Below, one piece after another: positions 16,987 through 53,230 of a stretch of DNA of 64,000 bases. The notes beneath the pieces were generated by a model, which was not told the DNA's origin, searched no databases, and was given only the letters and a program-made list of their open reading frames with translations. A program made the position numbers and the translations under genes. The DNA comes from an uncultured Bacillota bacterium (GTDB lineage: Bacteria > Bacillota > Clostridia > Christensenellales > Borkfalkiaceae). The DNA lies in contig CASEIS010000118.1 of assembly GCA_949287895.1 (NCBI GenBank), positions 2,808 through 66,807 of the forward strand, in the 5' to 3' direction. How positions within the stretch are numbered: position 1 is the stretch's first letter; every line of letters begins with the position of its first letter.

Positions 16987-17015
16987 TTCGCATAGTACTA
17001 TGTCACACATAGTTT
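16987..17015 (-). repeat. 29-bp dispersed motif, copy 3
   Basis: Minus strand AAACTATGTGTGACATAGTACTATGCGAA; between convergent transcription units. Confidence 0.85.
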
Positions 17016-17023
17016 ATAAATAA

Positions 17024-17051
17024 GAAAGGAGCCGGACAGTTTGTCCGGCTC
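17024..17051 (-). terminator. Terminator after the SRP RNA
   Basis: GAGCCGGACA/TGTCCGGCTC stem with CTTTC tail on the minus strand. Confidence 0.65.
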
Positions 17052-17067
17052 GCCGTCTGCGAAAGAA

Positions 17068-17332
17068 CTGTGCATCCTCCGTTGAAAATGTGCGCCGAAG
17101 CGTTAACACCGCAGGTGACTCCTGCAAAGCTTCCTTATGGCACACGAACACATCCGCTTAGTGCTGCTATATCCCTATCCTGACACGGTTCACGGCAGTC
17201 CGTTGCATAAGACCTTGCGATCAACGTTCCTTACGGAGCGCGGCCTTCCACGCGCAAGTCCGCGGGAGGCGTTCGGTTCTGCTATAGCGGATTGCAGATG
17301 CAGGGCACCGCTAACTCCCCACCTAGCACAGC
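17068..17332 (-). ncRNA. ffs: Signal recognition particle RNA, large (Alu-containing) bacterial type
   Basis: 5' GCTGTGCTAGGTGGGGAGTTAGCGGTGCCCTG..CTGCAATCCGCT Alu domain; helix 8 GTGTCAGG...AGCAGCAC; complementary ends; upstream TTGCAA-17-TAAAAT. Confidence 0.92.
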
Positions 17333-17508
17333 AATACTATTTTATACTATGCCGAAAAAATTTGCAACTGATTTCGCAAACTATCTTCGTGAAAATCTGC
17401 AAAGCATGGCAAATGCGCGCGAATTCTGCACAGAAGTTGCCGTGAACAGTTGCGAAAACCTGCCCGCTTGTATTATAATAGTAATTAGTTTGGACAAGGA
17501 GGCGACTT

Positions 17509-17748
17509 ATGCCGCATATATCGGTCAAAATGTTGGAAGGCAGAAGTGAGGAGCAAAAACAGAAGCTCGCCGCTGCGCTCGTGCGCACGCTGACGGAACA
17601 GCTGCACTGTTCTGATCATTACGTGACTTGCACGGTCGAAGATTACAGCCCTGAGGCCTGGCAGGAGGTCTTCCGTACGGAGATCGCGGAAAAGCCGAAG
17701 GACGTCGTCTATAAAAAAGCGGAATACGACCCCAAAAGCCTGCTGTAA
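17509..17748 (+). CDS. 4-Oxalocrotonate tautomerase family protein
   Basis: N-terminal Pro after Met; PHISVKMLEGRSEEQKQKL. Confidence 0.85.
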   Translation: MPHISVKMLEGRSEEQKQKLAAALVRTLTEQLHCSDHYVTCTVEDYSPEAWQEVFRTEIAEKPKDVVYKKAEYDPKSLL

Positions 17749-17793
17749 GGCGAGGGCCGCAAAATTATACAACAACATTCGTAAGGAGTTATT

Positions 17794-18600
17794 ATGGCGG
17801 AATGTACACATGACTGCGGCAGCTGCGGCGAGGACTGCGCCCGGCGCGATATGCACAAAGCGCCGCATGAACTGAGCAAAATCAAAAAAGTGATCGGCAT
17901 CGTGAGCGGCAAGGGCGGCGTCGGCAAATCATTGACGTCGGCTATGCTCGCCGTGACGGCAGAGCGCAACGGCTTCCGCACGGCGATCCTCGATGCAGAT
18001 ATCACGGGCCCATCCATCCCTAAAATGTTCGGCATCACCGAAAAGGCGATGGGTACGGAGCTTGGCATCCTCCCAGTCAAGAGCAAAAAGGGGATCGAGA
18101 TCATGTCGATGAACCTGCTGCTTGAAGAGGATACAGACCCCGTGATTTGGCGCGGCCCGGTCATCGCCGGCGCGGTGCTGCAATTCTGGACGGACGTCAT
18201 CTGGAATGACGTCGACTATATGTTCGTCGATATGCCCCCCGGGACGGGCGACGTGCCGCTGAGCATTTACCAGTCTATCCCTCTGGACGGGATCATCGTC
18301 GTGACGACGCCGCAAGATCTCGTCTCGATGATCGTTTTGAAGGCGGCGCATATGGCCGAAAAGATGAACATCCCTATCCTCGGCATCGTCGAGAACATGA
18401 GCTATGTGATTTGCCCCGACTGCGGGAAGAAGATCGAGATCTTCGGCAAGAGCCGCGTCGGCGAACTTGCTGCAGAAGTCGGTTGCAAGAACGTCGCGCA
18501 CATTCCCTTCGATCCCGCGCTGACCAAATGTGCCGACAGCGGGCTGATCGAGCTGTTTGAAGGGGATTACCTGGACGAGCTGTTCCGCTCGATCGAGTAA
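17794..18600 (+). CDS. Mrp/NBP35/ApbC Fe-S cluster carrier ATPase
   Basis: N-terminal Cys cluster, SGKGGVGKS, DADITGPS, WRGP, DMPPGTGD, ENMS..CPDC. Confidence 0.92.
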   Translation: MAECTHDCGSCGEDCARRDMHKAPHELSKIKKVIGIVSGKGGVGKSLTSAMLAVTAERNGFRTAILDADITGPSIPKMFGITEKAMGTELGILPVKSKKGIEIMSMNLLLEEDTDPVIWRGPVIAGAVLQFWTDVIWNDVDYMFVDMPPGTGDVPLSIYQSIPLDGIIVVTTPQDLVSMIVLKAAHMAEKMNIPILGIVENMSYVICPDCGKKIEIFGKSRVGELAAEVGCKNVAHIPFDPALTKCADSGLIELFEGDYLDELFRSIE

Positions 18601-18684
18601 ACCGTTTCATTTGGCACGGGCAAATGCCTCGCGAGTGGCAACGGTATAAAAAAGAAAAGCCGCCCTTTTCAGGACGACTTTTCT

Positions 18685-18771
18685 TGGTGCCGCTGGTCGG
18701 ACTCGAACCGACACGGTATCGCTACCACTGGATTTTGAGTCCAGCGCGTCTGCCAATTTCACCACAGCGGC
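18685..18771 (-). tRNA. tRNA-Leu(CAA)
   Basis: Cloverleaf with anticodon arm CTGGA-CTCAAAA-TCCAG, long variable arm, encoded CCA. Confidence 0.97.
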
Positions 18772-18913
18772 AATTTGCATTCGCATTGTTAATTATACAA
18801 TAAAACAGAAAATATAGCAAGCAAAAAGCAAATCGATTTGTAAATTTTTCCCCGCGCCTTCACAATGAGTGAAGAGCGGCATGCCGCATCGACGAAAATG
18901 AGAAAAGCGGTGT

Positions 18914-18942
18914 TTTACAGAGTACTATGTGTGATATAGAAC
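18914..18942 (-). repeat. 29-bp dispersed motif, copy 4
   Basis: Minus strand GTTCTATATCACACATAGTACTCTGTAAA; contains the ATG at 18927. Confidence 0.8.
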
Positions 18943-19349
18943 GAGCAAAATCATTGTTAGAAGGGCATTCTGTCGTCTGCGTTTGCGGCGACGCGGTGCA
19001 TATCCGCGATGAGCGAGGGATCCGTCCATTGCTCGAAATGATCGGGCGCGGCGAATCGCTGCGCGGTTTTACCGTCGCGGATAAGATCGTCGGGAAGGCT
19101 GCGGCGCTCTTGTTTGCGATCTTGCAGCCGGATGCGCTGCATGCGCGCGTACTGAGCGAGGGCGGCGCGGCCGTGCTTGAAAAATACAAGATCCCGTACA
19201 CCTGCGACGTTCGCACGGCAAAGATCATCAACCGCGCGGGCACGGATATCTGCCCGATGGAGCGGACGGTGCTCGCCATCGACGATCCGCAGGAAGCGCT
19301 CGCGGCGCTGCGGCAGACGGCGGCGAGGCTGCGTGCCGGCGCGCAATAA
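18927..19349 (+). CDS. DUF1893 family protein
   Basis: RGIRPLL, VADKIVGKAAA, IINRAG..CPME. Confidence 0.8.
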   Translation: MCDIERAKSLLEGHSVVCVCGDAVHIRDERGIRPLLEMIGRGESLRGFTVADKIVGKAAALLFAILQPDALHARVLSEGGAAVLEKYKIPYTCDVRTAKIINRAGTDICPMERTVLAIDDPQEALAALRQTAARLRAGAQ

Positions 19350-19361
19350 GAGCAAAGGAAA

Positions 19362-19384
19362 GGACAGCACGCGAGGTGCTGTCC
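19362..19384. terminator. Hairpin between convergent DUF1893 and lexA genes
   Basis: GGACAGCAC/GTGCTGTCC stem; T-rich tail on the minus strand. Confidence 0.6.
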
Positions 19385-19436
19385 CGTATTCCCTTCATCG
19401 GAGAATTTGTGTGCTCATTTTGATGTTGCCGCTCTA

Positions 19437-20027
19437 CTAAAAGCGGCGTACCAGCCCGATCACCTTGCCGAGGATCGAGACCTCGTCGACGACGATGTCG
19501 TCCATCGTCGGGTTTTCGGGATGGAGTACATAATATCCGTCTTTTTTGAAGAAGCGCTTGACGGTCGCGCTGTCGTCGAGCAGGGCGACGACGATATCGC
19601 CGTTTTCGGCTGTCTGCTGGCGGCGGACGACGATCTTATCGCCGTCGAGGATGCCCGCGTCGATCATGCTCGTGCCCTGCACGTTGAGCATGAACAGCTC
19701 GCTGCCTGCAAAGCTCCCGGCGGGGAACGAGTAGTAGTCCTCGTAATTTTCATAGGCGAAGATGGGCTGGCCGGCCGTGACAGTACCGATGAGCGGGATG
19801 TTGACGGAGGAGCTCCGCTTGAAGCTGACTGCGCGGTTCTTATTCGGCGAACGCGAAAGCAGCCCTTCGTTCTTCAGCTTTTCGAGATAATAATAGGCGG
19901 ATGCCGTCGATTTGATGTGCAGTTCGGCGCAGATTTCGCGCACGGTAGGAGAGTAGCCGTATTCGGCATTGTACTCGTTGATATAATTCAGAACTGCCTG
20001 CATCTTGTTTCTGCTGCTCTCAGACAT
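19437..20027 (-). CDS. lexA: SOS repressor LexA
   Basis: GYSPTVREIC winged helix, VTAG cleavage site, GTSM, ATVKRF; RBS AGGAGG. Confidence 0.95.
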   Translation of the reverse strand: MSESSRNKMQAVLNYINEYNAEYGYSPTVREICAELHIKSTASAYYYLEKLKNEGLLSRSPNKNRAVSFKRSSSVNIPLIGTVTAGQPIFAYENYEDYYSFPAGSFAGSELFMLNVQGTSMIDAGILDGDKIVVRRQQTAENGDIVVALLDDSATVKRFFKKDGYYVLHPENPTMDDIVVDEVSILGKVIGLVRRF

Positions 20028-20051
20028 CGCGCATTCCTCCTGCTGTCTACC

Positions 20052-20090
20052 ATTATAACAGAAATCTTTCCGAAAAGCAAACAAATGTTT
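20052..20090 (-). promoter_or_regulatory. lexA promoter with adjoining SOS-box-like palindrome
   Basis: Minus strand TTGCTT-17-TATAAT; AAAC-AAAT-GTTT (20079-20090) resembles GAAC-N4-GTTC and touches the -35. Confidence 0.7.
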
Positions 20091-20144
20091 ATAAAATTCT
20101 TGATTATTTTTGCATAACGCGCTATAATTTGTGCGGAGGTCGGT

Positions 20145-20327
20145 ATGGAAACGCAAAAATGTGTATTGTATGACCGCGACTGCATCGGCTGCTTAGAGTG
20201 CGAGATGTGCGATCTGGATCCGAATAAGGTGTGTGATAACTGCGGCAAGTGCCTGGATATCAAAGACTTCGCGACGATCAAGATCGACAAGATCGTGGCG
20301 GACGAACCGGGCAAAGCGGGGAAATAA
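20145..20327 (+). CDS. Small Cys-rich protein (8 Cys), function unknown
   Basis: RBS GGAGG; promoter TTGATT-17-TATAAT (20100-20128); CIGCLECEMCDLDPNKVCDNCGKC. Confidence 0.7.
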   Translation: METQKCVLYDRDCIGCLECEMCDLDPNKVCDNCGKCLDIKDFATIKIDKIVADEPGKAGK

Positions 20328-20385
20328 TGGATGGTCGCGGCGTGGGGCTGCGGCGAGGCGTGCGTGGGAAACTGCGGAGGTTGCG

Positions 20386-22641
20386 ATGAAAGAGAAAAGA
20401 GCTGAAGTGTTGGCTCCCGCGGGGGATGCTGCGGCGTTGAAAGCGGCGCTTGCTGCCGGAGCGGATGCGGTCTATCTCGGCCTGCAAGATTTTTCTGCGC
20501 GCAAGTCTGCCGCCAACTTTACCGTCGAAGATCTTAGCTCTGCTACCCGCCGCGCACACGCGCTCGGCGCGAAGATCTACGTCGCCCTGAATACGCTCGT
20601 CAAGGATGAAGAACGCAATGGCTTTTTTACGAGCGCACTGCAGGCGTGGAACGCGGGTGCTGATGCGCTGATCATACAAGATCTCTTCCTTGGCCGCGAA
20701 CTGAAGGGGCTGTATCCGGAGATGGAGCTTCATCTCTCTACCCAGGCGGGCGTCTGCAATGCGGAGGGGGCGAGCCTCGCCAAAGAATGTGGCTTTACGC
20801 GCGTCATTCTCGCCCGCGAGACGCCGCTTGCCGACATCAAGCGCATCGCCGCGATCATCGAGACGGAATGTTTTGTGCAGGGCGCGCTCTGCACCTGCTT
20901 TTCGGGACAATGTTACTTTTCATCTGCCGTCGGCGGAAACAGCGGCAACCGCGGCCTGTGTAAACAGCCTTGCCGCAAGCGCTACTCCATCGACCGTGCA
21001 GGCTTTGAAAAACCCGCCTATCGCCTCTCCCTCGCCGATCTGTGCGTGGGGAAGGACATCGTAAAGCTGCTGGAGGCGGGCGTATCCTCCTTCAAGATCG
21101 AGGGGCGCATGCGTTCCGCCGCCTATGTGGGCGCCGCCGTGCGGTACTACCGCGACATCCTTGATGGAACGGGGAATTTGGCGGAAGATCTTTCCGACCT
21201 GAAACGCACCTTCAACCGCGGCAACTACACCAAGGGCTACCTCTTCGGGCAGGATCAGAATTTGCTCTCGTCTGCCATCCAGGGGCACATCGGCGAAGCT
21301 GTCGGCAAGCTCGAGGGGAAGGACAAGAGCGGGCGCTACCTGTTTGTGCGCTCCGCCTTTGTGCCGCAAGATAAAGACGGCTTCAAGATCATCCGCGGCG
21401 GCGCGGAAGAAGTGGGCGGCGCGGCCTGGCACAGCAGCTACCCGGCTGGCAAGGGCGGCTTTTATCTCCCGTTTGACGCAAAATACCGCCGCGGTGACGA
21501 TGTTTGCCTGACGCTGGACAACGCGCTCGCAGTGCGCATCGAAAGCCGCCGCCGCACGGCTGAAGTGCGGCTTCGCATCGCGATGCGTGCCGGGGAACCG
21601 CTGCGCGTCACGGCGTGCGGCAGCTTCGGCGAGTACAGCGCGCAGTCTCCCTTTACAGCCGAGATCTCGCGCAACCGTCCGACGACGGCAGAAGATCTCG
21701 CCGATTGCTTTGCGAAGGTAGACGGCCTGCCCGTCAGCGTCCGCTTTGACGAGGTCTGTGCGGACGGGCAGAGCTTTGCCGTGCGTTCGCAGCTGAACGC
21801 ATTCCGCCGCGCGGTGTGGGCGGACATCTACGAGCGCCTCTCAGCGACGCATCCGCCGCTGGAGGACCGCGGCTTTCCCTCGCATCCCGCGTTTGCGGCG
21901 GAGCCGGCGCAGGGGAAGATCGCCGTCATCGACCGCGATTTTTCGGCGCCCTGCTACCGGGGTCGGATGCTCGATTATGCCATCTTTGACCCTGTCGACT
22001 GCAATAATCAGGGGAATATTCGCGATTTTTTGGAAAATGCGAAGTACTATGCCAGGCATAAATACCTCTATCTACCAGCATACTGCACGGGCGAAGATCT
22101 GAAGCTGTACGAGCCGCTGCTGCCGCTGTTTGACGGCATCTACGCGGACGGATATTATGCGCTGCGGCTGTGCCGCGAAAACAATATCCCTCTCTTTGCA
22201 GGGACGGGAATGAACCTCTTCAACCGCGCCGACGCGCTCGGTGCGCTTGGTGCGGGCGCGGGAGAGATCGCGCTCTCCAAGGAGCTATCTCTGACCGAGA
22301 TCGGGGCGATCGGCGTCCCGTCCGCCTTTGTATTTGCGGGCGGGCGGACGCGGCTGATGGACCTCGGGCATTGTCCGTTCGGGAAGCGCTGCGTATCCTG
22401 CGACCGCACCGTCGACCGCTATACGCTGCGCGATGAGGCCGGGCGGGAATTTCCGCTGCTGCGCGCAGAGCGCTCCGCCTGCCGCTTTACCGTCTACAAC
22501 TGCGTCCCGCTGCGCGTCGATTGCGGCGGCAATAAGCTGTTCGATCTGAGCGCCTCGACGCCGGAAGAAAAGGAGCGCATCCTCTCCGGAACCGGGGGCG
22601 GCGCGTTCACGGCAGGGGCATCTAAAAAAGGAATTTATTGA
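20386..22641 (+). CDS. Peptidase U32 family protein (RlhA-like Fe-S RNA hydroxylation protein)
   Basis: EVLAPAG, GADAVYLG, HLSTQ, LARE, LCTCFSGQC, NRGLCKQPCR, FKIEGRM. Confidence 0.85.
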   Translation: MKEKRAEVLAPAGDAAALKAALAAGADAVYLGLQDFSARKSAANFTVEDLSSATRRAHALGAKIYVALNTLVKDEERNGFFTSALQAWNAGADALIIQDLFLGRELKGLYPEMELHLSTQAGVCNAEGASLAKECGFTRVILARETPLADIKRIAAIIETECFVQGALCTCFSGQCYFSSAVGGNSGNRGLCKQPCRKRYSIDRAGFEKPAYRLSLADLCVGKDIVKLLEAGVSSFKIEGRMRSAAYVGAAVRYYRDILDGTGNLAEDLSDLKRTFNRGNYTKGYLFGQDQNLLSSAIQGHIGEAVGKLEGKDKSGRYLFVRSAFVPQDKDGFKIIRGGAEEVGGAAWHSSYPAGKGGFYLPFDAKYRRGDDVCLTLDNALAVRIESRRRTAEVRLRIAMRAGEPLRVTACGSFGEYSAQSPFTAEISRNRPTTAEDLADCFAKVDGLPVSVRFDEVCADGQSFAVRSQLNAFRRAVWADIYERLSATHPPLEDRGFPSHPAFAAEPAQGKIAVIDRDFSAPCYRGRMLDYAIFDPVDCNNQGNIRDFLENAKYYARHKYLYLPAYCTGEDLKLYEPLLPLFDGIYADGYYALRLCRENNIPLFAGTGMNLFNRADALGALGAGAGEIALSKELSLTEIGAIGVPSAFVFAGGRTRLMDLGHCPFGKRCVSCDRTVDRYTLRDEAGREFPLLRAERSACRFTVYNCVPLRVDCGGNKLFDLSASTPEEKERILSGTGGGAFTAGASKKGIY
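22036..22064 (-). repeat. 29-bp dispersed motif, copy 5 (inside CDS)
   Basis: Minus strand TATTTATGCCTGGCATAGTACTTCGCATT. Confidence 0.65.
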
Positions 22642-22669
22642 GTACTTTGGTACTCTGTGTGTTTGAATT

Positions 22670-25039: not shown

Positions 25040-25157
25040 AGGCGGGCGGCCGCAGCTTCCGCGCGCGGCCGGACGATGGACAAAGGCGGAGAGCATAACT
25101 TTCCTTTCCCGTTCATACATTGACTTGATCGATGTGTTAGACGGGAGGTAGGATGAC

Positions 25158-25874: not shown

Positions 25875-25910
25875 GGCGCGCGGCAATAATTTCACCATTG
25901 GAGTAAAGAC

Positions 25911-27164: not shown

Positions 27165-27194
27165 AATCGATCGATATATCGCATTTTTTGCACG

Positions 27195-27223
27195 TTTGCA
27201 TAGTACTATGTCTGACAAAATTT
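27195..27223 (-). repeat. 29-bp dispersed motif, copy 6
   Basis: Minus strand AAATTTTGTCAGACATAGTACTATGCAAA; contains the ATG at 27208. Confidence 0.85.
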
Positions 27224-27714
27224 TCGGATTTTCGCCTGTTTTCGACGAACACAGCCGCGTGCTCATTTTAGGAAGCTTTCCATCTGTTCAAAGCCGCAAG
27301 GTGGATTTTTATTACGGCAACAAGCAAAACCGCTTTTGGCCGATGCTCGGGCGTTATTTCGGGGAAAGGATCGAAGAGGGGCGGTCGTGGCGGCGCGATT
27401 TTGTCTTGCGGCACGGCGTCGCGCTTTGGGATATCGTCGTTGCCTGCAATATCCGCGGCTCGTCTGACGCGAGCATTCGTGATTACGAGATCGCCGACCT
27501 CGACGAAGTGCTGCGCACCGCGCCCGTCGAATGCATTTTGCTGAACGGCGCGATGGCGCACCGCTTCTTTTGCGAGCGGTACGCCGCGGTCGGGATCCCG
27601 TTTATAAGGATGCCTTCGACCAGCCCGGCCAACCCGCGCTATCGGGAAGCGGAGTGGTTTGCCGCGTTGGACGCAGTCTTTGCCCGCGGCAAAGCAGTGG
27701 AGAGCAACATATGA
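27208..27714 (+). CDS. DNA-deoxyinosine glycosylase (UDG superfamily)
   Basis: LILGSFPS, FYYGNKQNRFW, ALWD, GSSDASI, MPSTSPAN. Confidence 0.85.
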   Translation: MSDKIFGFSPVFDEHSRVLILGSFPSVQSRKVDFYYGNKQNRFWPMLGRYFGERIEEGRSWRRDFVLRHGVALWDIVVACNIRGSSDASIRDYEIADLDEVLRTAPVECILLNGAMAHRFFCERYAAVGIPFIRMPSTSPANPRYREAEWFAALDAVFARGKAVESNI

Positions 27715-28409
27715 AAAATTACGACGCGATCGTCGCCGACCTGCGCTCGATGCGCGACGAAACATACCGCGCGTTCAACGAGCGCATCGCCAATATACCT
27801 GCGGGCAGCAGCATCGGTGTACGCACGCCGGCGCTGCGCGCCTATGCGAAGGAGCTCGTGCGGGCGGAGGGTTTTTCGCTCGGCGAGCTCTTCTCCTTTC
27901 CGAACGATATCTACGAGATCCGCCTGCTGCAATGCCTCGGCGTCGGTTATTGCAAGATACCTTTCGGCGAGCGTGCCGATTGGATCCGCCGCGCCGTCTC
28001 CATCATCGACGGTTGGTCCGTCTGTGACCTGTTATGCTCGACGCTGCGCATCCCGAAGGCCGCAAAACAGTCTTTTTTGACAGAAATAGAGTATTATGTC
28101 AGACATGGATCGGAGTTTTCGCAGCGTTTTGCCTACGTGATGCTGCTCGGCAACTATGTCGACGAAGCACATCTATCCTTTATTTTTTCTGCGCTTGACC
28201 GAGCCGAAACAAAATTTTACTATACCCATATGGGGGCGGCATGGCTGCTGTGCGAGGTGCTTGTCAAGTTTTACGAAGCGGGCGTCGCCTATCTGAAGGA
28301 GGGTGCGCTCGATGCTGCGACCAAACGCAAGGCGATCCAAAAGGCTTGTGAGAGCTTTCGACTGACCGCCGAGCAAAAAAACTTTCTGAAACTTTTGAAA
28401 AAGGGATGA
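27711..28409 (+). CDS. DNA alkylation repair protein (AlkD-like)
   Basis: GVRTPALR, IDGWSVCD, YYTHMGAAW, AIQKACESFR; ATGA overlap with the upstream gene. Confidence 0.82.
   Translation: MKNYDAIVADLRSMRDETYRAFNERIANIPAGSSIGVRTPALRAYAKELVRAEGFSLGELFSFPNDIYEIRLLQCLGVGYCKIPFGERADWIRRAVSIIDGWSVCDLLCSTLRIPKAAKQSFLTEIEYYVRHGSEFSQRFAYVMLLGNYVDEAHLSFIFSALDRAETKFYYTHMGAAWLLCEVLVKFYEAGVAYLKEGALDAATKRKAIQKACESFRLTAEQKNFLKLLKKG
28083..28111 (-). repeat. 29-bp dispersed motif, copy 7 (inside CDS, core variant)
   Basis: Minus strand GATCCATGTCTGACATAATACTCTATTTC. Confidence 0.6.
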
Positions 28410-28492
28410 AAATCCAAAAAAAGTGTGGTACAATATGACAGATGCGGTCATTTGTACCGCAGAAGCATTACAATTCACATACGGAGAGAATC

Positions 28493-30697: not shown

Positions 30698-30701
30698 AGC
30701 A

Positions 30702-34916: not shown

Positions 34917-34920
34917 AAGA

Positions 34921-39955: not shown

Positions 39956-39957
39956 TC

Positions 39958-41064: not shown

Positions 41065-41124
41065 TACCCGGGAATATCATTGCACAATTGTATAAATCAT
41101 TTCGAAAGGAGGGATCTATTTCTC

Positions 41125-42897: not shown

Positions 42898-42919
42898 TTT
42901 TTAACGGTAGGAGTAGGAC

Positions 42920-45355: not shown

Positions 45356-45373
45356 CCAAGCAGCAAAAGTATC

Positions 45374-47185
45374 ATGAATATCTACTATAATCCCTTAGAC
45401 GTACGCTGTAAGAGCATCATCGGCGGGATTGAGCAAAACCAGGAATTGCATATCCGTGTTTACGGCAAAAGTACTGAGCCTTGTCTGTTCGTCCTGCATA
45501 AGGACGGACAGTCTGGGGCTCAATATTTGCATATGGATCCCGTTGCGGATGGATGGAGTTTGCTCTTAAACCTGCAGGAACCGGGCCTCTATTTTTACCA
45601 CTTCCAATTCGGAGAACGCTATGTCGCCGGCTGCGGAAAATTTCGCAACATTGAATTTTCCGAATCGATCACAGAGTACCAGATCTTAGTATATCGCAAA
45701 GGTTTCCAAACGCCGGACTGGTTCAAAGGGGGGATCATGTATCAGATCTTCCCCGATCGTTTTTACAAGAGCGGCGACGTAACTGTCGCTCCGGAAAAAT
45801 GGCTGCATCAAAGTTGGTACGAGGCGCCCGAATACCGCATGAACGCCGAAGGCAAGGTCCTCAACAATGACTTTTTCGGCGGAAATATTCGCGGTATTCT
45901 CGAAAAGCTCGACTATTTACAGAGCCTGCACGTCACGATCATCTATCTCAATCCGATTTTTCGCTCCTTTTCCAATCACCGATACGACACGGGTAACTTT
46001 ATGGAGATCGATCCGACGTTCGGCACAGAGGAGGAGTTTGCCGAGCTCGTAGAGGAATGCCGGAAGCGCGGCATGCGCATCATGCTGGACGGCGTCTTCA
46101 ACCATACGGGCGATGATAGCTTGTATTTTAATAAATACGGGCGTTATAATGAAGTAGGGGCATATCAATCTAAAAATTCAAAGTACTATGCGTGGTATAG
46201 TTTTATTCATTATCCTGAAAAGTACCACGCCTGGTGGGGGATCGATAATTTGCCCGCCGTTAACGAAGAGGAGCCGTCGTATGCCGCGTACATAACGGGC
46301 GAAGACGGGGTCCTCAAACATTGGATGCAATACAAGCTCGGCGGATTCCGTTTGGACGTCGCCGATGAACTCCCCGACGAGTTTATCGAGAAGATCCGCG
46401 CAGCCGTCAAGAGCTCAGATCCAAACGCGATCGTCCTCGGCGAAGTGTGGGAGGACGCCTCCAACAAGATCGCTTACAGCAAGCGCCGCAAATATTTTTG
46501 GGGCAACGAGCTGGACAGCGTGATGAATTATCCGCTCAAGGACGCGATCATCCAGTTTATCACCAGCGGCAACACGACGACCTTCCGCCAGACGATCGCC
46601 ATGTTGCGCGACAACTACCCGAAGACCGTCCTCGACTCGCTGATGAACATACTCGGCACGCATGATACTGCGCGCATCCTGACGGCGATGGGCGGCGTCT
46701 GTGCGTACACCAAAGACGAGATGAGCCGCATCAAGATGGACGAGGCGGCCCGCAAAAAGGCTGCCGAGCGCGTCAAAGCGGCGACCGTTCTGTTGCTTAC
46801 CGTCTTTGGCGTGCCGTGCATCTACTACGGCGATGAGATCGGCATGGAAGGGTATTCTGATCCATTTTGCCGGTTTCCGTTCGATTGGGAACACATGGAT
46901 GCAGAGATGCTCGCGCATTACCGCCGCTTGACACATATCCGATCTTCTCTCTCCGTATTCCGCGACAGCGAATATAAGGAGCTTTTCGCCGATGAAAATT
47001 GCATCGTCTATGAACGGCGAAAGGGGAAAGAGGTAGCCGTCGTCGTCATGAACTGCGGCCATAACCGCTATGATATGAAATATCGCGGCAAGTTGTTCGA
47101 CCTCCTCCACGGCAATGCGGTGCACCGCGACCACTTTGCTATAATGCCGCACTATTACACGATTTTAAGCAATCATCTGGTGTAA
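45374..47185 (+). CDS. GH13 glycoside hydrolase (amylopullulanase/neopullulanase-like)
   Basis: YQIFPDRF, SNHRYDT, DGVFNH, RLDVADE, GEVWED, GTHDT, IYYGDE. Confidence 0.88.
   Translation: MNIYYNPLDVRCKSIIGGIEQNQELHIRVYGKSTEPCLFVLHKDGQSGAQYLHMDPVADGWSLLLNLQEPGLYFYHFQFGERYVAGCGKFRNIEFSESITEYQILVYRKGFQTPDWFKGGIMYQIFPDRFYKSGDVTVAPEKWLHQSWYEAPEYRMNAEGKVLNNDFFGGNIRGILEKLDYLQSLHVTIIYLNPIFRSFSNHRYDTGNFMEIDPTFGTEEEFAELVEECRKRGMRIMLDGVFNHTGDDSLYFNKYGRYNEVGAYQSKNSKYYAWYSFIHYPEKYHAWWGIDNLPAVNEEEPSYAAYITGEDGVLKHWMQYKLGGFRLDVADELPDEFIEKIRAAVKSSDPNAIVLGEVWEDASNKIAYSKRRKYFWGNELDSVMNYPLKDAIIQFITSGNTTTFRQTIAMLRDNYPKTVLDSLMNILGTHDTARILTAMGGVCAYTKDEMSRIKMDEAARKKAAERVKAATVLLLTVFGVPCIYYGDEIGMEGYSDPFCRFPFDWEHMDAEMLAHYRRLTHIRSSLSVFRDSEYKELFADENCIVYERRKGKEVAVVVMNCGHNRYDMKYRGKLFDLLHGNAVHRDHFAIMPHYYTILSNHLV
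46175..46203 (-). repeat. 29-bp dispersed motif, copy 8 (inside CDS)
   Basis: Minus strand AAACTATACCACGCATAGTACTTTGAATT. Confidence 0.6.
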
Positions 47186-47193
47186 AACTTTCT

Positions 47194-47222
47194 TTTGTAT
47201 AGTACTATGCCAGACATAATAC
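47194..47222 (-). repeat. 29-bp dispersed motif, copy 9
   Basis: Minus strand GTATTATGTCTGGCATAGTACTATACAAA; intergenic. Confidence 0.85.
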
Positions 47223-47235
47223 CGTCTTAATCGCG

Positions 47236-48159: not shown

Positions 48160-50060
48160 GACGCTGCAGACATTTTTTCCGCTTCTATTGTTTGCCGGTG
48201 CTGTTGGCCGCAGCCTTACTTTTACTCTCTGCCTGCGGCATCGCTGCACCGCCGGAATACGACGGCAACAGGCGCTTTGAAACAGCCTATACTGAAACGG
48301 ACGAGAGCCTTTCGACCAACTTTTCCGAAGCCTATGCCGCCGCATCCGCATCCGTCGTTATGGTCGAAGTCCGTGCCTCTGCAGCCGATATCACTTACGG
48401 CAGCGGCGCCGTCATTGACGGCGAACAGGGCTACATCCTGACCTCTTCGTCGTTGGTTGCGCGCGATGCGATCACCGAGCCGACATATACGGTTACTTTT
48501 GCCGACGGAAACAGCGCCTCCGCGACGCTGTATGGGTACGGCGCGCGTTCAACCGGCCGCTGGTTCTATCGTTCGCCATCGGTGAGCGACGACCGCATCC
48601 CGAGCAACGCCGATATTGCCGTTTTAATTGTAGACGGCGCTGCAAATGGGCGCTATACCGACTTGAACGGAACGGAGCACGCTTTGCCGCAAGCGCTCGC
48701 CTTTGCGGATTCAGACGCGCTTACTTATGGCGAAAGCTGTTTTCTTATCGGGACCGTCGTCAGCAAAGATGGCGCCAAGCCAGGATTGGCTGCCGAAGGA
48801 CTTATCTCCAAACCATCCAATACACATACTTCAAATTTTGAATTTGCAGACGGCAGCAGCCTGTTTGACGGCTCGTTTGCCTATCTCGTGCAGACGAGCA
48901 TCCAAACGAATAGCGGAAATGAAGGCGCGCCGTTGCTCAACGAGGCCGGGCAGATCGTCGGTCTGATCAACCGCCGCGCCGAGACGACGGAGCGCTATGT
49001 ACAAGGCGAAGCGTACGGGCTCTCTTTTGCGACACCTTCGACAGTGATCTGCGATACGCTCGCTGACGGCGGGATCGATATCCAGCCGGAAGAAACGCCG
49101 CTGCCTACGCGCGAAAGTATCATTTCAAACGCCGATTCCATTCACATGGCGACCGATCCCGTCGCACAGATCCTGATGCGGCGCCGCCCGGCCGTCACGT
49201 CCTCTCAAAGTCAATACATCGGCAGTTCCGATTATTACGTCGCCGATGCAAGCTCGCCGATCATTTTCGCTGCGGCAAAACAATGGGCGCAAGCATCTAC
49301 AAGCGCGCAAAAAGTCGCCGCGGCGACACTGGATAAAGTCGTCAAAATTATTGTTTACTCTGATCACATCGGCGCAGAAGAAGTGATCAATCTCAGTGAA
49401 GGAAGCGGCTTTCTCGTCCATTCGAGCGGCCTTGTCATGACGAATTTGCACGTCCTCAATAAATTGACCGAGCGCAACCAAATCGAAGCGGGTACCGCCA
49501 ACGCACGAGTCGATATCGAGGGTATTTCAGTCTTTGCCGTCTTTGAAAACGGAACGGACCGCTATGGACGCTTTATCCTGTTGCCGATGGATGTCGTCGC
49601 TTATCAGCAGCAGGGGGACCTGGCCGTGCTGCGCTTCCAAAACCAGATCTTTACCGAAACGGACAGCGACGAACCCGCAGAGGGATTTGCCGATATCTGT
49701 ACCTTTGAAAAGACGCTGCCGCAGCGCGGCGATACGGTCTATGCCATCGGCAACGCTGTCGCGTACGGCATTTCGATCGCGGACGGCATCGTTTCACTGC
49801 CAAATTCATCGTATTACCGCGACGAATTCGGCTATGACATGATCCAGACAGATTGCCCGATCAACGGGGGCAATTCCGGTGGCCCGATGTTGAATGCCGA
49901 AGGTCACGTCATCGGCGTCAATACGCTCGGCATCGGCGGCGAACTTACAACAAAATATGGCTATGAAAATATCAGCTGGGCCATCCCGGCAGCCTTTGCA
50001 GAACAATTTTTGCAGGCGGTGCTGCAAGGCCAAAGCGGAAACGGCGTCACCATCGTGTGA
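48156..50060 (+). CDS. Lipoprotein with two trypsin-like (S1C/HtrA-type) domains and no PDZ
   Basis: Lipobox LSAC; domain 1 GSG..ILTSSS, DIAVL, GNEGAP; domain 2 GSG..MTNLHV, DLAVL, GNSGGP. Confidence 0.82.
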   Translation: MRRCRHFFRFYCLPVLLAAALLLLSACGIAAPPEYDGNRRFETAYTETDESLSTNFSEAYAAASASVVMVEVRASAADITYGSGAVIDGEQGYILTSSSLVARDAITEPTYTVTFADGNSASATLYGYGARSTGRWFYRSPSVSDDRIPSNADIAVLIVDGAANGRYTDLNGTEHALPQALAFADSDALTYGESCFLIGTVVSKDGAKPGLAAEGLISKPSNTHTSNFEFADGSSLFDGSFAYLVQTSIQTNSGNEGAPLLNEAGQIVGLINRRAETTERYVQGEAYGLSFATPSTVICDTLADGGIDIQPEETPLPTRESIISNADSIHMATDPVAQILMRRRPAVTSSQSQYIGSSDYYVADASSPIIFAAAKQWAQASTSAQKVAAATLDKVVKIIVYSDHIGAEEVINLSEGSGFLVHSSGLVMTNLHVLNKLTERNQIEAGTANARVDIEGISVFAVFENGTDRYGRFILLPMDVVAYQQQGDLAVLRFQNQIFTETDSDEPAEGFADICTFEKTLPQRGDTVYAIGNAVAYGISIADGIVSLPNSSYYRDEFGYDMIQTDCPINGGNSGGPMLNAEGHVIGVNTLGIGGELTTKYGYENISWAIPAAFAEQFLQAVLQGQSGNGVTIV

Positions 50061-50091
50061 ACGCCGTTTTTTTATGCCTCGCGAGAGGAGA

Positions 50092-50619
50092 GCAAAACAC
50101 TGCGTAAAATACTGCGCGTAGGGTATCGCTCGCTGCGGGAAGAGAGCGCGCCGTTTTGCCAAAACCGCCGGCCAAACGCATCGGTGCCCGGCATCACGCG
50201 GGCCATGATCGACCGCCTGACAACAAATTATGCAGCTCTTTTGACGAAGTCGAAAAGACGTCCGTCATTTTTATTGGCTTGATTGAAAGTGCAATGGATG
50301 CTGCGCGCCGTACAGATCAAACAAAATGCGCCGCGAGTGACAGAATATAGGCGAGCCATCCATCAAAGCCTCGCACAAATTCTGTCTCAGCGCGCCTTAG
50401 AGGCTCTTTTGTTCATATATAAATTCAATGAAAACAAACACACCTCAAACCGCCGCGATAACCGATAGAATCTGAAAGGCAAACTTGTGCACCAGGATGA
50501 TTCATTTTATAAAGGCGGCGCCAAAGCATCAAAGCACGAAAGAATTCAAAACATTAGGCCACACCACCTCGTTTTATGCCTATTTATTCGTAAAAGTCGT
50601 GTTTTACGCAGTGTTTTGC
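50092..50619. repeat. Perfect 18-bp inverted repeat pair (50092-50109 and 50602-50619)
   Basis: GCAAAACACTGCGTAAAA and TTTTACGCAGTGTTTTGC. Confidence 0.85.
50585..50612. other. Candidate dif-type recombination site (11-6-11)
   Basis: TATTCGTAAAA-GTCGTG-TTTTACGCAGT; 7-bp inverted arms around a 6-bp spacer, about 210 bp upstream of the recombinase. Confidence 0.55.
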
Positions 50620-50786
50620 GTGTCTTGTTTTCTCCTCTACCACAAAAAGATGCGTGGCGCGTCATTCAATATAAGGAAGCTCTCACGTATAAAATTGCCG
50701 CCTGATGCGCTCTTACCGGCCCGCGCACAACAATTCCGGCTGCTTGCAGGCATATGCAGGCCCCTATGAATTTTTCAGACAAATCG

Positions 50787-50815
50787 TTGATTTTTTTGCC
50801 GTCATGCGGTATAAT
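50787..50815 (+). promoter_or_regulatory. SigA-type promoter of the recombinase gene
   Basis: TTGATT-17 bp-TATAAT ending 9 nt before the ATG. Confidence 0.7.
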
Positions 50816-50824
50816 ATCCTATAT

Positions 50825-51886
50825 ATGGCCGAGCAATCTTTTTACCAAAAACGAAATATCAAAAATTTAGAGCGCATCGAAGGCCTTTTAGAAGAGCTTC
50901 CACCCTTTGTTGAAGAATACTTTTTGGGGATCGAGAACCAGACGAGCACGCTGACAAGGCTCAATTACGCCTACGATCTGCGCATTTTTTTCGATTATCT
51001 CTCCAAAAAGCGGCTGCACGGAAAGGACGTTCGCTCCATCACCCTATCCGACCTCGAGGCGGTCTCTGCGACCGATATCGAGCGGTTTATCAGCTATCTG
51101 TCCAATTATGAGTTCCGCGGGGCGCACGAAAGCTGCAACGAACGCGCAAAAGCGCGCAAACTGTCGACCATCCGCGCCATGTTCAAGTACTTTTTTAAGA
51201 AGGAAAAGATCAGCGTCGACAACGCGGCAAAGGTTACGATGCCCAAACTGCACGAAAAAGAGATCATCCGCCTGGAGCCGAACGAGATCGCCGATTTGCT
51301 GAACTGCGCCGACTCGGGCAGCGGCATGAGCAACCACCAGCGCGCGTTCCATGACAGGACGCGCGTGCGCGACGTCGCAATTTTGACGCTCTTTTTGGGA
51401 ACGGGCATCCGTATCAGCGAGCTCGTCGGGTTGAACGACGAAGACATTGACTTTTCTTCTAACAGCTTCAAGGTGACGCGCAAAGGCGGCAACCAGGCTA
51501 TCCTCTACTTTTCGCAGGAGGTCGCCGATGCGCTCGCGCGCTACATGGCTTTTAAGGAAGAAGACCCGGAGATCCCGGAAGGCGAGCACGCACTGTTTCT
51601 GTCACTGAAAAAGCAGCGCATCAGCATCCGCGCCGTCGAAAACCTCGTCAAAAAATACAGCCGCATCATCTCGCCGCTGAAAAAGATCTCTCCCCATAAA
51701 CTCCGCAGCACCTATGGCACGCAGCTGTATCGGGAGACCAAGGATATCTACGTCGTCGCCGACGTACTCGGGCACAAAGACGTCAATACGACGCGCAAGC
51801 ATTACGCAGCCATCAGCGAGGACGTGCGCCGCGACGTGGCCGAAAAGGTACACCTGCGCGAACAAGACCCTCCACAGGACAAATGA
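50825..51886 (+). CDS. Xer-family tyrosine recombinase (single, XerS-like size, 353 aa)
   Basis: GIRISE, TRKGG, PHKLRST, LGH, RKHY give a complete R-K-H-R-H-Y set; housekeeping context next to hflX. Confidence 0.88.
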   Translation: MAEQSFYQKRNIKNLERIEGLLEELPPFVEEYFLGIENQTSTLTRLNYAYDLRIFFDYLSKKRLHGKDVRSITLSDLEAVSATDIERFISYLSNYEFRGAHESCNERAKARKLSTIRAMFKYFFKKEKISVDNAAKVTMPKLHEKEIIRLEPNEIADLLNCADSGSGMSNHQRAFHDRTRVRDVAILTLFLGTGIRISELVGLNDEDIDFSSNSFKVTRKGGNQAILYFSQEVADALARYMAFKEEDPEIPEGEHALFLSLKKQRISIRAVENLVKKYSRIISPLKKISPHKLRSTYGTQLYRETKDIYVVADVLGHKDVNTTRKHYAAISEDVRRDVAEKVHLREQDPPQDK

Positions 51887-51900
51887 GCGCGATCATGCGC

Positions 51901-51929
51901 GATTTATGTCACGCATAGTACTTTGCAAA
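51901..51929 (+). repeat. 29-bp dispersed motif, copy 10
   Basis: GATTTATGTCACGCATAGTACTTTGCAAA; between the recombinase and hflX. Confidence 0.85.
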
Positions 51930-51931
51930 AT

Positions 51932-53197
51932 ATGGAAATACGCGAAAATATCGACCAAAACGGAATTCAAGAAAAAATTTATATCGTACAGCCCATCTTA
52001 AACGACGAGGCGCTCGCCCTGCGCGACGAGGCTGTATCGCTGATCGAAAGCGCGGGCGCGCTCTACGCGGGCACCATCTTCCAGAAGATCCGCGATGTCA
52101 ACCCCGCAACTTTTATCGGGCCGGGCAAGCTGCAGGAGCTGCGCGAGCGGCTGGACGGGCTGGATGTGACCGTCCTCTTCAACGGCGAACTGACCCCCTC
52201 CCAAACGCTCAACATCTCCGCCGCGCTGGACAATAAAAAGGTGATCGACCGCACCACGCTCATTCTCGATATCTTTGCCAACAATGCGCGCAGCAGCGAA
52301 GGCAAGCTGCAGGTCGAACTCGCGCAGCTGCAGTATATGTATCCGCGCCTCAAAGGCAAAGGCGAAGCGCTCTCCAGGCTCGGCGGCGGGATCGGCACGC
52401 GCGGCCCGGGCGAAACGAAATTAGAAACGGATCGCCGTCGCATCCGCATGCGGATCGCCTATTTGAAAGATCGCCTCAACACACTTGAAAATCGCCGCGA
52501 GCTCGTCAATGCGCGCCGCAAAAAGGAATCTGCACGGCGCATCGCGCTCGTCGGCTATACAAATACAGGGAAATCGACCCTGCTCAACTTGCTGACGGGC
52601 GCCGATGTTCCTGCCGAAGATCGCCTGTTTGCGACGCTCGACCCTACGACGCGCCGCCTCGTCATCGACGGGATCGAGTTCTTGCTCACCGATACTGTCG
52701 GTTTTTTGCGCGAACTGCCGCACAACCTGATCTCCGCATTCCACTCGACGCTCGAAAGCGCGCTCAACTGCGACCTCGCGCTGATCGTCTGTGACGCGAC
52801 GAGCGATTATCGGATGCAATACGAGACGACGCTGCAGACGCTCAAAGAGCTCGAATGTGACGTTCCTTGCCGCATCGTCATGAACAAGTGCGAATCGATC
52901 GATTGCTTTGACGAATATCCCCGCGATGCGATCTTTATCTCCGCTAAAGAGAATATCGGTATCGATCGCCTTCGGCAGGAAATCTTAAGACATTTTTCCG
53001 CCGATATGTCGACCGTCTGCCTGCGCATCCCCTACACGCGCATGAACGAATACGCGCGCGTCAAAGGTTATGCAGCGGAGAGCGACTTTCGCTATATGGA
53101 TGACTGTGTAGAGCTGTCGGCACGCATCCCGAACATCCACCTGTCGAAGTTTGCCCCCTTTCGCATCCCCGACCGCGAGGAAAAACAGCCTCGGTAA
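51932..53197 (+). CDS. hflX: Ribosome-splitting GTPase HflX
   Basis: IDRTTLILDIF, GGIGTRGPGETKLE, GYTNTGKS, LFATLDPT, DTVGF; start uncertain. Confidence 0.95.
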   Translation: MEIRENIDQNGIQEKIYIVQPILNDEALALRDEAVSLIESAGALYAGTIFQKIRDVNPATFIGPGKLQELRERLDGLDVTVLFNGELTPSQTLNISAALDNKKVIDRTTLILDIFANNARSSEGKLQVELAQLQYMYPRLKGKGEALSRLGGGIGTRGPGETKLETDRRRIRMRIAYLKDRLNTLENRRELVNARRKKESARRIALVGYTNTGKSTLLNLLTGADVPAEDRLFATLDPTTRRLVIDGIEFLLTDTVGFLRELPHNLISAFHSTLESALNCDLALIVCDATSDYRMQYETTLQTLKELECDVPCRIVMNKCESIDCFDEYPRDAIFISAKENIGIDRLRQEILRHFSADMSTVCLRIPYTRMNEYARVKGYAAESDFRYMDDCVELSARIPNIHLSKFAPFRIPDREEKQPR

Positions 53198-53201
53198 AGG
53201 C

Positions 53202-53230
53202 GATCTACGTGTGGCATAGTACTCTGCAAA
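53202..53230 (+). repeat. 29-bp dispersed motif, copy 11
   Basis: GATCTACGTGTGGCATAGTACTCTGCAAA; between convergent genes. Confidence 0.85.

Follow-up and report, generated by a model that had tools for sequence, protein, structure and literature searches.

Chromosome-direction signals have been described in detail in only a few model species, and comprise KOPS/SRS, the Ter sites, and matS. The last of these is a 13-bp palindrome without direction, which is read by MatP. To our knowledge, fork traps are known from two lineages only, and no described family combines confinement to the terminus side, polarity, and convergence on a single-recombinase dif module. The translocases FtsK and SpoIIIE are oriented by KOPS/SRS, which include GGGNAGGG in E. 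coli, the SRS of B. subtilis, and A-rich heptamers in Lactococcus (PMC5357621, PMC3936747). The described fork traps are Tus-Ter in E. coli and RTP-Ter in B. subtilis (PMC10331603, PMC8347550).

The motif analyzed here is a non-coding site of 20-40 bases from one genus of uncultured Clostridia of the gut, and it appears to represent a new type of direction sign for the chromosome. It is an asymmetric double-stranded DNA site, with a conserved core of ~20 bp, AGTACTATG-N5-CATA, that is extended to 37-40 bp in this species. The core contains the palindrome CATAGTACTATG, and a third half-site, CATA (+14 to +17), is also strongly conserved and renders the motif asymmetric in every species; its two dyads, GCAnAGTACTnTGC and CTATG-N5-CATAG, overlap by sharing one half-site. 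The motif was read throughout in form B, TTTGCAnAGTACTATGyvnGrCATArwTCGCnGCAAA, and copies were scored in bits with a position matrix; what the initial annotation had listed as minus-strand copies are copies of form B read on the plus strand. The motif greatly exceeds chance: at 16 bits or more, 112 raw matches were found in the genome, compared to none in the reversed genome. Most copies (84 of 97) lie outside predicted genes, 3 of the 84 at contig ends, and in orthologous copies from species with 33-62% GC the variable positions drift, while the conserved ones are maintained.

Several conventional identities were rejected. A sigma-70-type promoter is contradicted by a promoter scan that made no calls at the copies, by the 27 of 81 copies that are directed at the 3′ end of a gene running towards them, by a canonical promoter located between the motif and the next gene in 7 of 18 cases, and by uvrB, which has its own conserved promoter and LexA box. 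An intrinsic terminator was set aside, as the element has no stable hairpin and canonical terminators adjoin it on either side. A hairpin repeat was rejected on the predicted folds (-3.5 to -11.5 kcal/mol, z-scores +0.5 to -2.9), which differ from copy to copy; the top-ranked co-varying column pairs were nearly all adjacent, and no palindrome stem pair was found among them.

Within the window (the whole 64,000-nucleotide stretch that was analyzed), the matrix scan recovered the eleven copies that had been reported, seven reading one way (16987-47222) and two the opposite way (51901 and 53202), together with the two exceptions at 4827 and 12191. Coordinates are collected in the table below.

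Features of the window, with motif strands given for form B
Feature	Position	Strand	Score (bits)	Remarks
Motif copy, rule-breaker	4818..4856	-	45.8	directed away from dif-like site
Motif copy, rule-breaker	12182..12220	-	53.8	near-consensus
Motif copy	16986..17024	+	41.9	directed at dif-like site
Motif copy	18913..18951	+	49.7	directed at dif-like site
In-gene copy, lower-scoring	22035..22073	+	35.4	U32 peptidase reading frame
Motif copy	27194..27232	+	50.2	directed at dif-like site; after M16 peptidase gene
In-gene copy, weak	28082..28120	+	20.9	C118 position 30897
In-gene copy, lower-scoring	46174..46212	+	29.8	encodes K-Y-Y-A-W-Y
Motif copy, innermost on left arm	47193..47231	+	49.7	directed at dif-like site, 3.4 kb away
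dif-like palindrome	50584..50613	.		12-6-12, core CGTAAAA-GTCGTG-TTTTACG; motif orientation reverses here
Xer-type tyrosine recombinase gene	50705..51886	+		Pfam Phage_integrase + SAM_1
Motif copy, innermost on right arm	51892..51930	-	55.5	directed at dif-like site, 1.3 kb away
hflX, last + strand gene	51932..53197	+		Pfam
Motif copy	53193..53231	-	44.2	directed at dif-like site; convergent gap; also in L002

In the window alone the orientation pattern is marginal (runs test, P = 0.033 for the 7+4 copies and P = 0.071 for the nine intergenic ones); when the entire 88-kb contig is counted, 13 of its 15 copies are directed at 50.6 kb (P = 0.007). Three of the seven plus-strand copies (22035, 28082, and 46174) lie within coding sequence and have lower scores, and the second of these is probably the seventh copy of the initial annotation. 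The other two encode K-Y-Y-A. Across the copy at 22035, the coding score of the peptidase frame is still positive, and the frame reads N-A-K-Y-Y-A-R-H-K; the stretch at 46174 with its K-Y-Y reading has a counterpart in the same position in L002-L005, relatives whose GC content is as low as 33%, and a function of this copy is doubtful. The copy at 16986 separates a ZIP transporter gene from the SRP RNA gene, next to the 3′ end of the latter, and that at 18913 is flanked by a tRNA gene (-) and a DUF1893 gene (+). The two innermost copies are conserved: the left one keeps its position and orientation in L002, L003, and L004, and the right one, which abuts the hflX start, does so in the same three relatives and in G001 and G032. 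The right copy opposes both flanking genes. Positioned after the dif-like site and before the genes change strand, it obeys the dif rule over the gene rule in six genomes.

The first rule-breaker lies between the stop codon of an aldose epimerase gene (4811) and the next gene. It is missing in G012, in which the two genes are 3 nt apart, and alignment coordinates suggest that it is likewise missing in G011 and G013, with the genes ~10 nt apart. The second lies between an ACT-domain gene and a LysA-like gene, at a synteny breakpoint relative to G001, and is an example of the reversed copies that are close to consensus. An inversion, which had been considered as the cause of the two exceptions, is contradicted by the finding that both oppose their own flanking genes (two plus-strand neighbors in the case of the first), and that the G001 orthologue of the first has the same orientation.

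The point at which orientation flips had been placed at a candidate dif site, and conservation agrees with this placement. G001, L002, L003, and L004 all carry the palindrome upstream of their recombinase gene, and its counterpart in G032 is a perfect 13-6-13 palindrome, located where the GC skew peaks and the genes change strand. A search of the assembly for a classical XerCD-type dif gave no match. The recombinase gene, whose region contains a canonical promoter at 50787-50815, is the only full-length tyrosine recombinase match of the assembly. The change of bulk gene direction reported at about 53.3 kb was located between 53197 and 53329; this switch after hflX is conserved, and hflX would, judging from synteny with G032, lie on the lagging strand. 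The GC-skew peak falls on the dif-like site in G032, and lies ~16 kb aside in the window and in G001. A GC-skew inflection far away, which would have refuted the initial annotation, was thus not what these genomes showed. A lone Xer gene, a palindrome, and a GC-skew switch, which characterize single-recombinase Xer/dif modules, are all present, the skew peak of the window with the offset just given. The flip in the window is the meeting place of two chromosome arms.

In this genus, the motif is limited to 25-45% of the chromosome, on the terminus side, with an inferred contig order in every genome. The 97 copies of this assembly (G000) are confined to 38 of 177 contigs (0.68 Mb), compared to 64 contigs expected under a uniform model (minimum 51 in 2000 simulations). 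On the copy-bearing contigs, ~84 intergenic copies are distributed over 295 intergenic gaps of at least 60 nt (~28%), and on the remaining 1.03 Mb none of 400 such gaps holds a copy. The dnaA contig of this assembly has no copies, and among the strict-pattern matches listed for 17 genomes none lay on the dnaA contig (the G001 list is complete); one 1-mismatch match was found 61 kb from dnaA in G032. Two relatives showed the same split into copy-rich and copy-free contigs. In G001, the 310 kb analyzed from C12, C24, C27, and C6 contained no copy and 60 kb of C9 a single weak match, compared to 30 copies in 310 kb of C22 and C34; when contigs of G000 and G001 were matched, copy-rich paired with copy-rich and copy-free with copy-free. 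Of the genes on copy-rich contigs, 42% had a G032 orthologue within the 0.7 Mb on the terminus side, compared to 10% on copy-free contigs (P = 5e-37). Of 27 pattern matches in G032 itself, 24 fall within stretches on the terminus side (part of the 0.7 Mb analyzed out of 2.6 Mb), and the 3 in the other 1.9 Mb equal the control count. Most species have 1-17 strict-pattern matches, and G000, G001, and G051 have 57-82. Copy number varies ~30-fold across the genus, with gains and losses between species.

Since this assembly is fragmented, the extended orientation scans were run in relatives, among them a near-complete congener of 8 contigs (G032) and the closest well-assembled relative (G051). On each arm, most copies follow replication and converge on the dif-like site beside the lone Xer-type recombinase gene. 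In G032, with replication direction taken from GC skew, 21 of 24 scan copies read with replication, as do all 18 strong copies (at least 29 bits; P = 8e-6) and all four copies in convergent gaps; the copies at 118223, 153628, and 41582 do so against their neighboring genes. Contig C5 of G032 has its dif-like site at 119.4 kb; the five copies on the left side of this site are all directed at it, and the only one on the right, a weak in-gene copy, is directed away. In G000, 49 of 57 copies match the replication direction obtained from G032 orthologues and 8 (14%) oppose it, and agreement is complete in convergent (6/6) and divergent (3/3) gaps. In G051, 57 of 65 copies have the majority orientation of their contig and 8 (12%) the opposite one, and orientation reverses at the dif-like site of the terminus contig, C7. 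Polarity is weak in G001, where the ratio on the 117-kb arm is 8:6 and 11 of 17 copies are directed at the dif-like site. Random orientation beyond the window, which would have refuted the initial annotation, was not seen in G032 or G051, and the proposed mirror symmetry around the terminus was recovered in G032, G051, and the majority of G000 copies, but only weakly in G001 and with a reversed minority. Gene and replication directions are largely confounded, and only a handful of copies tell them apart.

We consider it somewhat probable that the sites are protein-bound and give direction to a DNA-tracking machine heading for the terminus: a protein would bind the sites, and a machine tracking along the DNA would be steered terminus-ward. 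The location of copies just past gene ends would follow because the site is too long for coding sequence or promoter regions. A guide for an FtsK/SpoIIIE-type translocase, KOPS-like but long and on the terminus side only, is a tentative candidate, and the assembly contains a gene of the FtsK type that includes a gamma domain. A leaky, Ter-like polar barrier to replication forks is rather unlikely, and some other tracking process quite improbable. It is also rather unlikely that the sites form a previously unknown fork trap, with dozens of asymmetric two-dyad sites and a terminator protein unrelated to Tus/RTP; two opposed groups of sites would then have their innermost members 1.3 and 3.4 kb from the dif-like site. 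The steering of a tracking machine has to be weighed against the confounding noted above, with its few separating copies, the weak polarity in G001, the reversed copies in G000 and G051, the displaced skew peak in the window, the differences from known translocase guides and fork traps given below, the inferred order of contigs, and the ~30-fold range in copy number, with copies coming and going, which fits a spreading repeat.

Such a repeat, selfish or domesticated and of the REP or miniature-element kind, could acquire polarity without any function at the terminus if its copying were tied to replication, for example by insertion of single-stranded DNA on one template strand. The different counts between species are as it predicts, the copy upstream of uvrB is found only in G000 among 16 full-length loci scanned, the copy at 4827 is shared with G001 and missing in G012 where the genes abut, copies occur at synteny breakpoints, and a 37-bp site is not repeatedly reachable by point mutation, so that templated spread is required. 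However, neither a consistent hairpin nor stem covariation was found, conserved positions are held in orthologues whose variable positions drift, and the one Y1 transposase gene fragment in the assembly (109 residues, contig C27) lies 5 kb from the nearest copy. We know of no terminus-side restriction in REP-like repeats, and consider this origin unlikely. Transcription offers another account, in which the flip is a by-product of an element tied to the 3′ end of the preceding gene, in the same direction, and unlinked to replication. Of the G000 copies between same-strand genes, 50 of 61 are co-oriented with these genes; a co-oriented gene end lies upstream of 66 of 81 copies, occupancy is higher for convergent than for divergent gaps (16/107 vs 4/115, P = 0.004), and 13 of 79 strong copies have a terminator T-tail that starts at most 40 nt before the core. 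This account nevertheless leaves the 400 copy-free gaps on 1.03 Mb and the terminus-side restriction in G032 unexplained, and in G001 the same-strand gaps show only an 11:8 ratio of co-oriented to opposed copies. Where genes and replication conflict, copies side with replication (three in G032, and the hflX copy in six genomes), as do 9 of 9 copies in the convergent and divergent gaps of G000, with its inferred replication direction. The restricted distribution, the terminus-side location, and the polarity with replication are the grounds on which our own earlier gene-direction reading was given up, and a transcriptional by-product is now quite unlikely. Marks of a terminus domain, read by a structuring protein in the manner of matS and MatP, would likewise be restricted to the terminus side, and the 24 sites of G032, close to the number of matS sites, and the palindrome in the core fit this idea. 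Direction is unnecessary in a domain marker, whereas all 18 strong G032 sites are polar, and the CATA half-site brings asymmetry in every species; a domain mark with incidental polarity is very unlikely.

If a protein reads the motif, it would be a new factor in the termination of replication or the segregation of chromosomes, and would act in a large group of uncultured anaerobes from the gut. A true fork trap would mean that polar fork arrest had arisen independently for a third time. For practical purposes, contigs of draft genomes from this genus can be ordered and oriented around the terminus by means of the motif.

Among known systems, the XerS/difSL and XerH/difH modules resemble the flip point only, with a recombinase of ~350-390 residues beside a palindrome with AAAA...TTTT inner arms at the terminus (PMC5357621); the dif-like CGTAAAA-N6-TTTTACG is unlike the difSL and difH sequences, and recombination at it is predicted. 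REP/RAYT elements share the tens to hundreds of short intergenic repeats, mostly at gene 3′ ends, and the differences in copy number among close species, but the present motif has no stable hairpin, no GTAG-type foot, and no flanking RAYT gene, and occupies one chromosomal domain. With matS/MatP it shares sequence-specific sites in a terminus-centered domain, a few tens per genome, whereas it is asymmetric and polar and matS is directionless.

The Tus-Ter and RTP-Ter sites (23-30 bp) also occur on the terminus side only and are mirrored about the terminus, and the motif shows the same two opposed groups. RTP sites consist of two half-sites with a dimer on each, which makes them polar, and two overlapping dyads are present here. 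Known traps, however, have ~10 sites, all correctly oriented, in contrast to 24 to ~100 here, with 0-14% reversed; the copies at 4818-4856 and 12182-12220 are reversed on their own arm, whereas the strong copies of G032 are all correct. No Tus or RTP homologue was found in the assembly, which is 84% complete and has no match to PF02334 or PF05472. KOPS/SRS differ in having 7-8 bases, in occurring genome-wide, and in lying mostly in genes; the present core is ~20 bp (37-40 bp in this species), contains a palindrome, is nearly always intergenic, and is missing from at least half of the chromosome, on the origin side. What the motif shares with KOPS/SRS is an asymmetric word that runs from origin to terminus on both arms and meets at dif, with some reversed copies tolerated and one copy per 6-25 kb near the terminus. 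A single-recombinase Xer system that depends on FtsK and adjoins its dif site is likewise known (PMC5357621), and the switch in strand skew that marks KOPS/SRS is found here in G032 (21/24), G000 (49/57), and G051 (57/65), and weakly in G001 (11/17).

The motif was found to form a family of terminus-side sites that are polar with respect to replication and converge on the dif-like site. On its consensus strand (B), it reads aTTTGCAnAGTACTATGyvnGrCATArwTCGCnGCAAA and comprises a core, CATAGTACTATG, which is a perfect palindrome, a dyad, CTATG-N5-CATAG, which shares one half-site with the core palindrome, and weaker outer arms, TTTGC...GCAAA. A position matrix derived from 68 seed copies, and applied with a genome cut-off of at least 16 bits, gave 112 raw matches in the genome, compared to 0 in the reversed genome; once merged, these correspond to 97 elements in the assembly. 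In the window, the matrix scan returned the copy positions and strands recorded in an initial annotation (seven with B on the + strand, there termed minus, and four with B on the − strand). Three of the seven B-on-+ copies lie inside coding sequence and have lower scores. The intragenic copies at 22035-22073 and 46174-46212 both encode K-Y-Y-A, and reach 30-35 bits because these codons (AAG TAC TAT GC) recreate the core; the 46174 stretch, including its K-Y-Y reading, was found again at the same place in relatives. An AGTACT at 22641 was rejected as a copy, with a score of −10 bits. In orthologous copies from relatives of 33-62% GC, the conserved positions are held and the variable positions drift.

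Coordinates of the motif copies and of neighboring features in the window (motif copies by start)
Feature	Coordinates	Strand	Basis or observation
Motif copies, B on +	16986, 18913, 22035, 27194, 28082, 46174, 47193	+	matrix scan
Motif copies, B on −	4818, 12182, 51892, 53193	−	matrix scan
SRP RNA gene	17068-17331	−	canonical promoter TTGCAA-17-TAAAAT; clear intrinsic terminator
tRNA gene	18688-18771	−	canonical promoter TTGCTA-17-TATAAT
dif-like site	50584-50613		palindrome
xer	50705-51886	+	Xer-type tyrosine recombinase gene
hflX	51932-53197	+	
Run of large genes with long near-identical DNA blocks	53329-62768	−	direct repeats D1-D4, D6, D10

Promoter-like traits of the motif include a −35-like TTTGCA, the boxes TACTAT and CATAAT (TGnCATAAT), and upstream T-tracts phased by ~10 bp. 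A promoter was ruled out by the copies in convergent gaps, by promoters located downstream of the motif, by the case of uvrB, and by the mixed functions of the downstream genes. The motif is present in 16 of 107 convergent gaps versus 4 of 115 divergent gaps (P = 0.004), and in 27 of 81 cases the gene ahead of the copy runs towards it, 3′ end first. Where copies are 60-400 nt from the next gene, a canonical TTGACA-17/18-TATAAT promoter intervenes in 7 of 18. Throughout the genus, uvrB has a TTGACT/TATAAT promoter of its own together with a LexA box, and it carries the motif upstream only in the species studied here; the genes downstream of the motif are functionally a miscellany. At the uvrB locus (L061:1400-1560, contig C39 of the assembly, and 15 relatives), a Firmicutes-type LexA box, GAACATTTGTTYG, lies downstream of TTGACT-17/18-TATAAT, and both are conserved genus-wide. 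A sigma-54 promoter was rejected on inspection by eye, as GG and GC lie one base too far apart and only a minority of copies have the GG. An RNA element, terminator or REP hairpin was also rejected, the folds being weak, different between copies and without covariation; nearly all of the top-ranked co-varying column pairs are adjacent columns, and 0 are stem pairs. The motif is therefore taken to be a double-stranded DNA site. No Rfam family covers the motif copies, and canonical terminators adjoin the motif on either side. A full-text literature search with the core sequence returned nothing relevant. The B. subtilis Ter site and the SlmA site share a GTACT core with the motif; only 5-6 bases are involved, and the likeness was not counted as evidence.

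The motif occurs on only 38 of the 177 contigs of the assembly (0.68 Mb), whereas 64 would be expected under a uniform model. These copy-rich contigs hold ~84 intergenic copies and 295 intergenic gaps of at least 60 nt; the remaining 1.03 Mb, to which the dnaA contig belongs, has 400 such gaps and 0 copies. The same split was seen in a sister genome (G001), in which C12, C24, C27 (dnaA), and C6 have 0 copies (310 kb fetched), C9 has one weak match in 60 kb, C34 and C22 carry 17 and 13 copies, respectively, and C22 and C17 each consist of one rich and one empty part. Between the two genomes, rich contigs are orthologous to rich, and empty to empty. In G032, a congener with a 2.6-Mb genome in 8 contigs (dnaA on a contig of 1.93 Mb, at 1.23 Mb), 24 of 27 pattern matches fall within C2 0-150 kb, C3 0-230 kb, C4 148-157 kb, and C5 39-162 kb, and the other 1.9 Mb gave three, which equals the control count. 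The GC skew of this genome has replication heading to those ends of C2, C3, and C4 that carry copies, and to the dif-like site on C5, and its contig sizes allow a balanced chromosome with the copy-bearing stretches around the terminus. Orthologues in the terminus-side 0.7 Mb of G032 were found for 42% of the genes on the copy-rich contigs of the assembly, compared to 10% on its empty contigs (P = 5e-37). On the dnaA contigs of 17 genomes, there was no strict-pattern match among the matches listed; one match with a single mismatch lies 61 kb from dnaA in G032. A chimeric genome bin is an unlikely cause of the patchy distribution, because a completeness of 84% with 4.5% contamination misfits two independent partial genomes, and because the same partition was found again in G001, G032, and G051, the closest well-assembled relative. 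Two diverged copies of a ~12-kb block of housekeeping genes, with 76-84% nucleotide identity to the window, are present in G001 (C37 29-40 kb versus C34 12-23 kb plus C22 1-6 kb); they stem from a segmental duplication or from a mixed bin, so that the G001 assembly may be mixed.

The flip point is a real feature of the terminus. The dif-like palindrome, CGTAAAA-GTCGTG-TTTTACG plus outer arms, is conserved directly upstream of xer in G001 and in three further loci of relatives (L002, L003, and L004). The xer gene is the sole full-length tyrosine recombinase match in the 84% complete assembly, anywhere in which a classical dif gave no match, and the arrangement is like that of the XerS/XerH single-recombinase systems, whose site lies beside its own recombinase gene (PMC5357621). 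In G032, the dif-like site (C5, 119.4 kb) forms a perfect 13-6-13 palindrome and marks both the maximum of the cumulative GC skew and the reversal of gene direction. A change of gene direction at ~53.3 kb, reported initially for the window, was confirmed, with + genes until the end of hflX (53197) and − genes from 53329 to the contig end, and this switch downstream of hflX is conserved in relatives; neither G001 nor G032 has, at the equivalent position, the large-gene cluster that follows. Judged by synteny to G032, the genes just past the dif-like site, xer and hflX, are lagging-strand encoded; the gene switch (53.3 kb) is therefore distinct from the dif-like site (50.6 kb). The GC-skew inflection sought at the terminus coincides with the dif-like site in G032, but is ~16 kb off in the window and G001, where the cumulative peaks (~34-36 kb and C34 ~130-140 kb, respectively) occupy the same orthologous place. 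Genes at 35-53 kb of the window have more C than G on the coding strand, though they are directed towards the dif-like site.

Several other observations concern this region. One dif-like arm, CACTGCGTAAAA, has a second copy ~490 bp leftward (50092-50109 versus 50602-50619), inverted relative to the right arm, and additional half-sites occur near the dif-like site in L002, L003, and L004; possible explanations are accessory arms and an invertible segment. The outer arms of the dif-like site in several relatives are ATCTATGCG...CGCATAGAT (G001 C34 ~119.6 kb, L004, and G032 C5 119399), and the same 8-9 bases make up the second dyad of the motif (CTATGCG...CATAGAT), a likeness that may be coincidental, because the outer arms differ in the assembly studied here. 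The hflX ATG (51932; window 51919-51934) lies 7 nt past the TACTTT of a motif core, without a Shine-Dalgarno sequence, and the distance in L002 and L003 is likewise 6-7 nt; a leaderless transcript with its start inside the motif may serve for hflX translation.

The terminus-centered polarity proposed in the initial annotation was supported when the tests suggested there were run in relatives. In G032, 21 of 24 copies read along the GC-skew direction, including all 18 copies of at least 29 bits, and the three exceptions are weak, intragenic copies. In G051, whose match coordinates are the same as those of L002, 57 of 65 copies have the majority orientation of their own contig; on the terminus contig, 5/5 copies to the left of the site and 7/10 to the right point inwards, and an opposite-strand gene block contains or adjoins two of the three exceptions. 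With replication direction inferred from the leading or lagging state of G032 orthologues, 49 of 57 copies in the assembly match, including 6/6 convergent-gap and 3/3 divergent-gap copies. Polarity is weak in G001 (8:6 on a 117-kb arm; 11/17 towards the site), and all seven copies within 45 kb of its dif-like site point inward. Copies 4818 and 12182, already singled out as rule-breaking, are indeed reversed, the former in G001 as well. Synteny breakpoints relative to G001 were found near 12.2, between 13.6 and 13.8, and near 16 kb, as had been suspected, but the rule was not rescued; an inversion does not explain these two copies, because both oppose their own genes.

If the motif followed the preceding gene, and genes reverse at the terminus, the flip would be a by-product of gene direction, and, in the assembly, 50 of the 61 copies flanked by same-strand genes are indeed co-oriented with them. 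This explanation was overturned, as it misfits both the restricted distribution and the polarity data of G032, in which copies 118223, 153628, and 41582 run along replication and against the adjoining genes, and 4/4 convergent-gap copies read along replication. Moreover, the xer-hflX copy opposes the two genes beside it and is aimed at the dif-like site; this was seen in the window, L002, L003, L004, G001, and G032. A repeat that spread with a replication bias stays a live rival to a functional site, because some copy-and-paste process must exist: a 37-bp site is beyond repeated origin by point mutation, and species differ by gains and losses of copies. The motif, however, has neither a hairpin nor a linked transposase. 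A lone IS200/IS605-type Y1 transposase fragment (contig C27 of the assembly, 10154-10312, L001; 109-residue frame, 51 bits) is not flanked by the motif.

For a functional site, a protein would read the motif, which would then give direction to a DNA-tracking process. A translocase guide is a possible, if tentative, assignment that tallies with the 12-14% of reversed copies tolerated, the occurrence of one copy every 6-25 kb, and the convergence on the dif-like site; an FtsK-type gene with a gamma domain is present in the assembly. A polar fork barrier, which we consider rather unlikely, tallies with the length of the site, its two dyads, and its confinement to the terminus side; reversed copies close to the consensus, high copy numbers, and the absence of any Tus or RTP match from the 84% complete assembly argue against a strong barrier. 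Known translocase guides differ from the motif in being 7-8 bases long and genome-wide (PMC5357621, PMC3936747). The two-dyad build of the motif, in turn, recalls the RTP sites, which consist of two half-sites with a dimer on each (PMC10331603).
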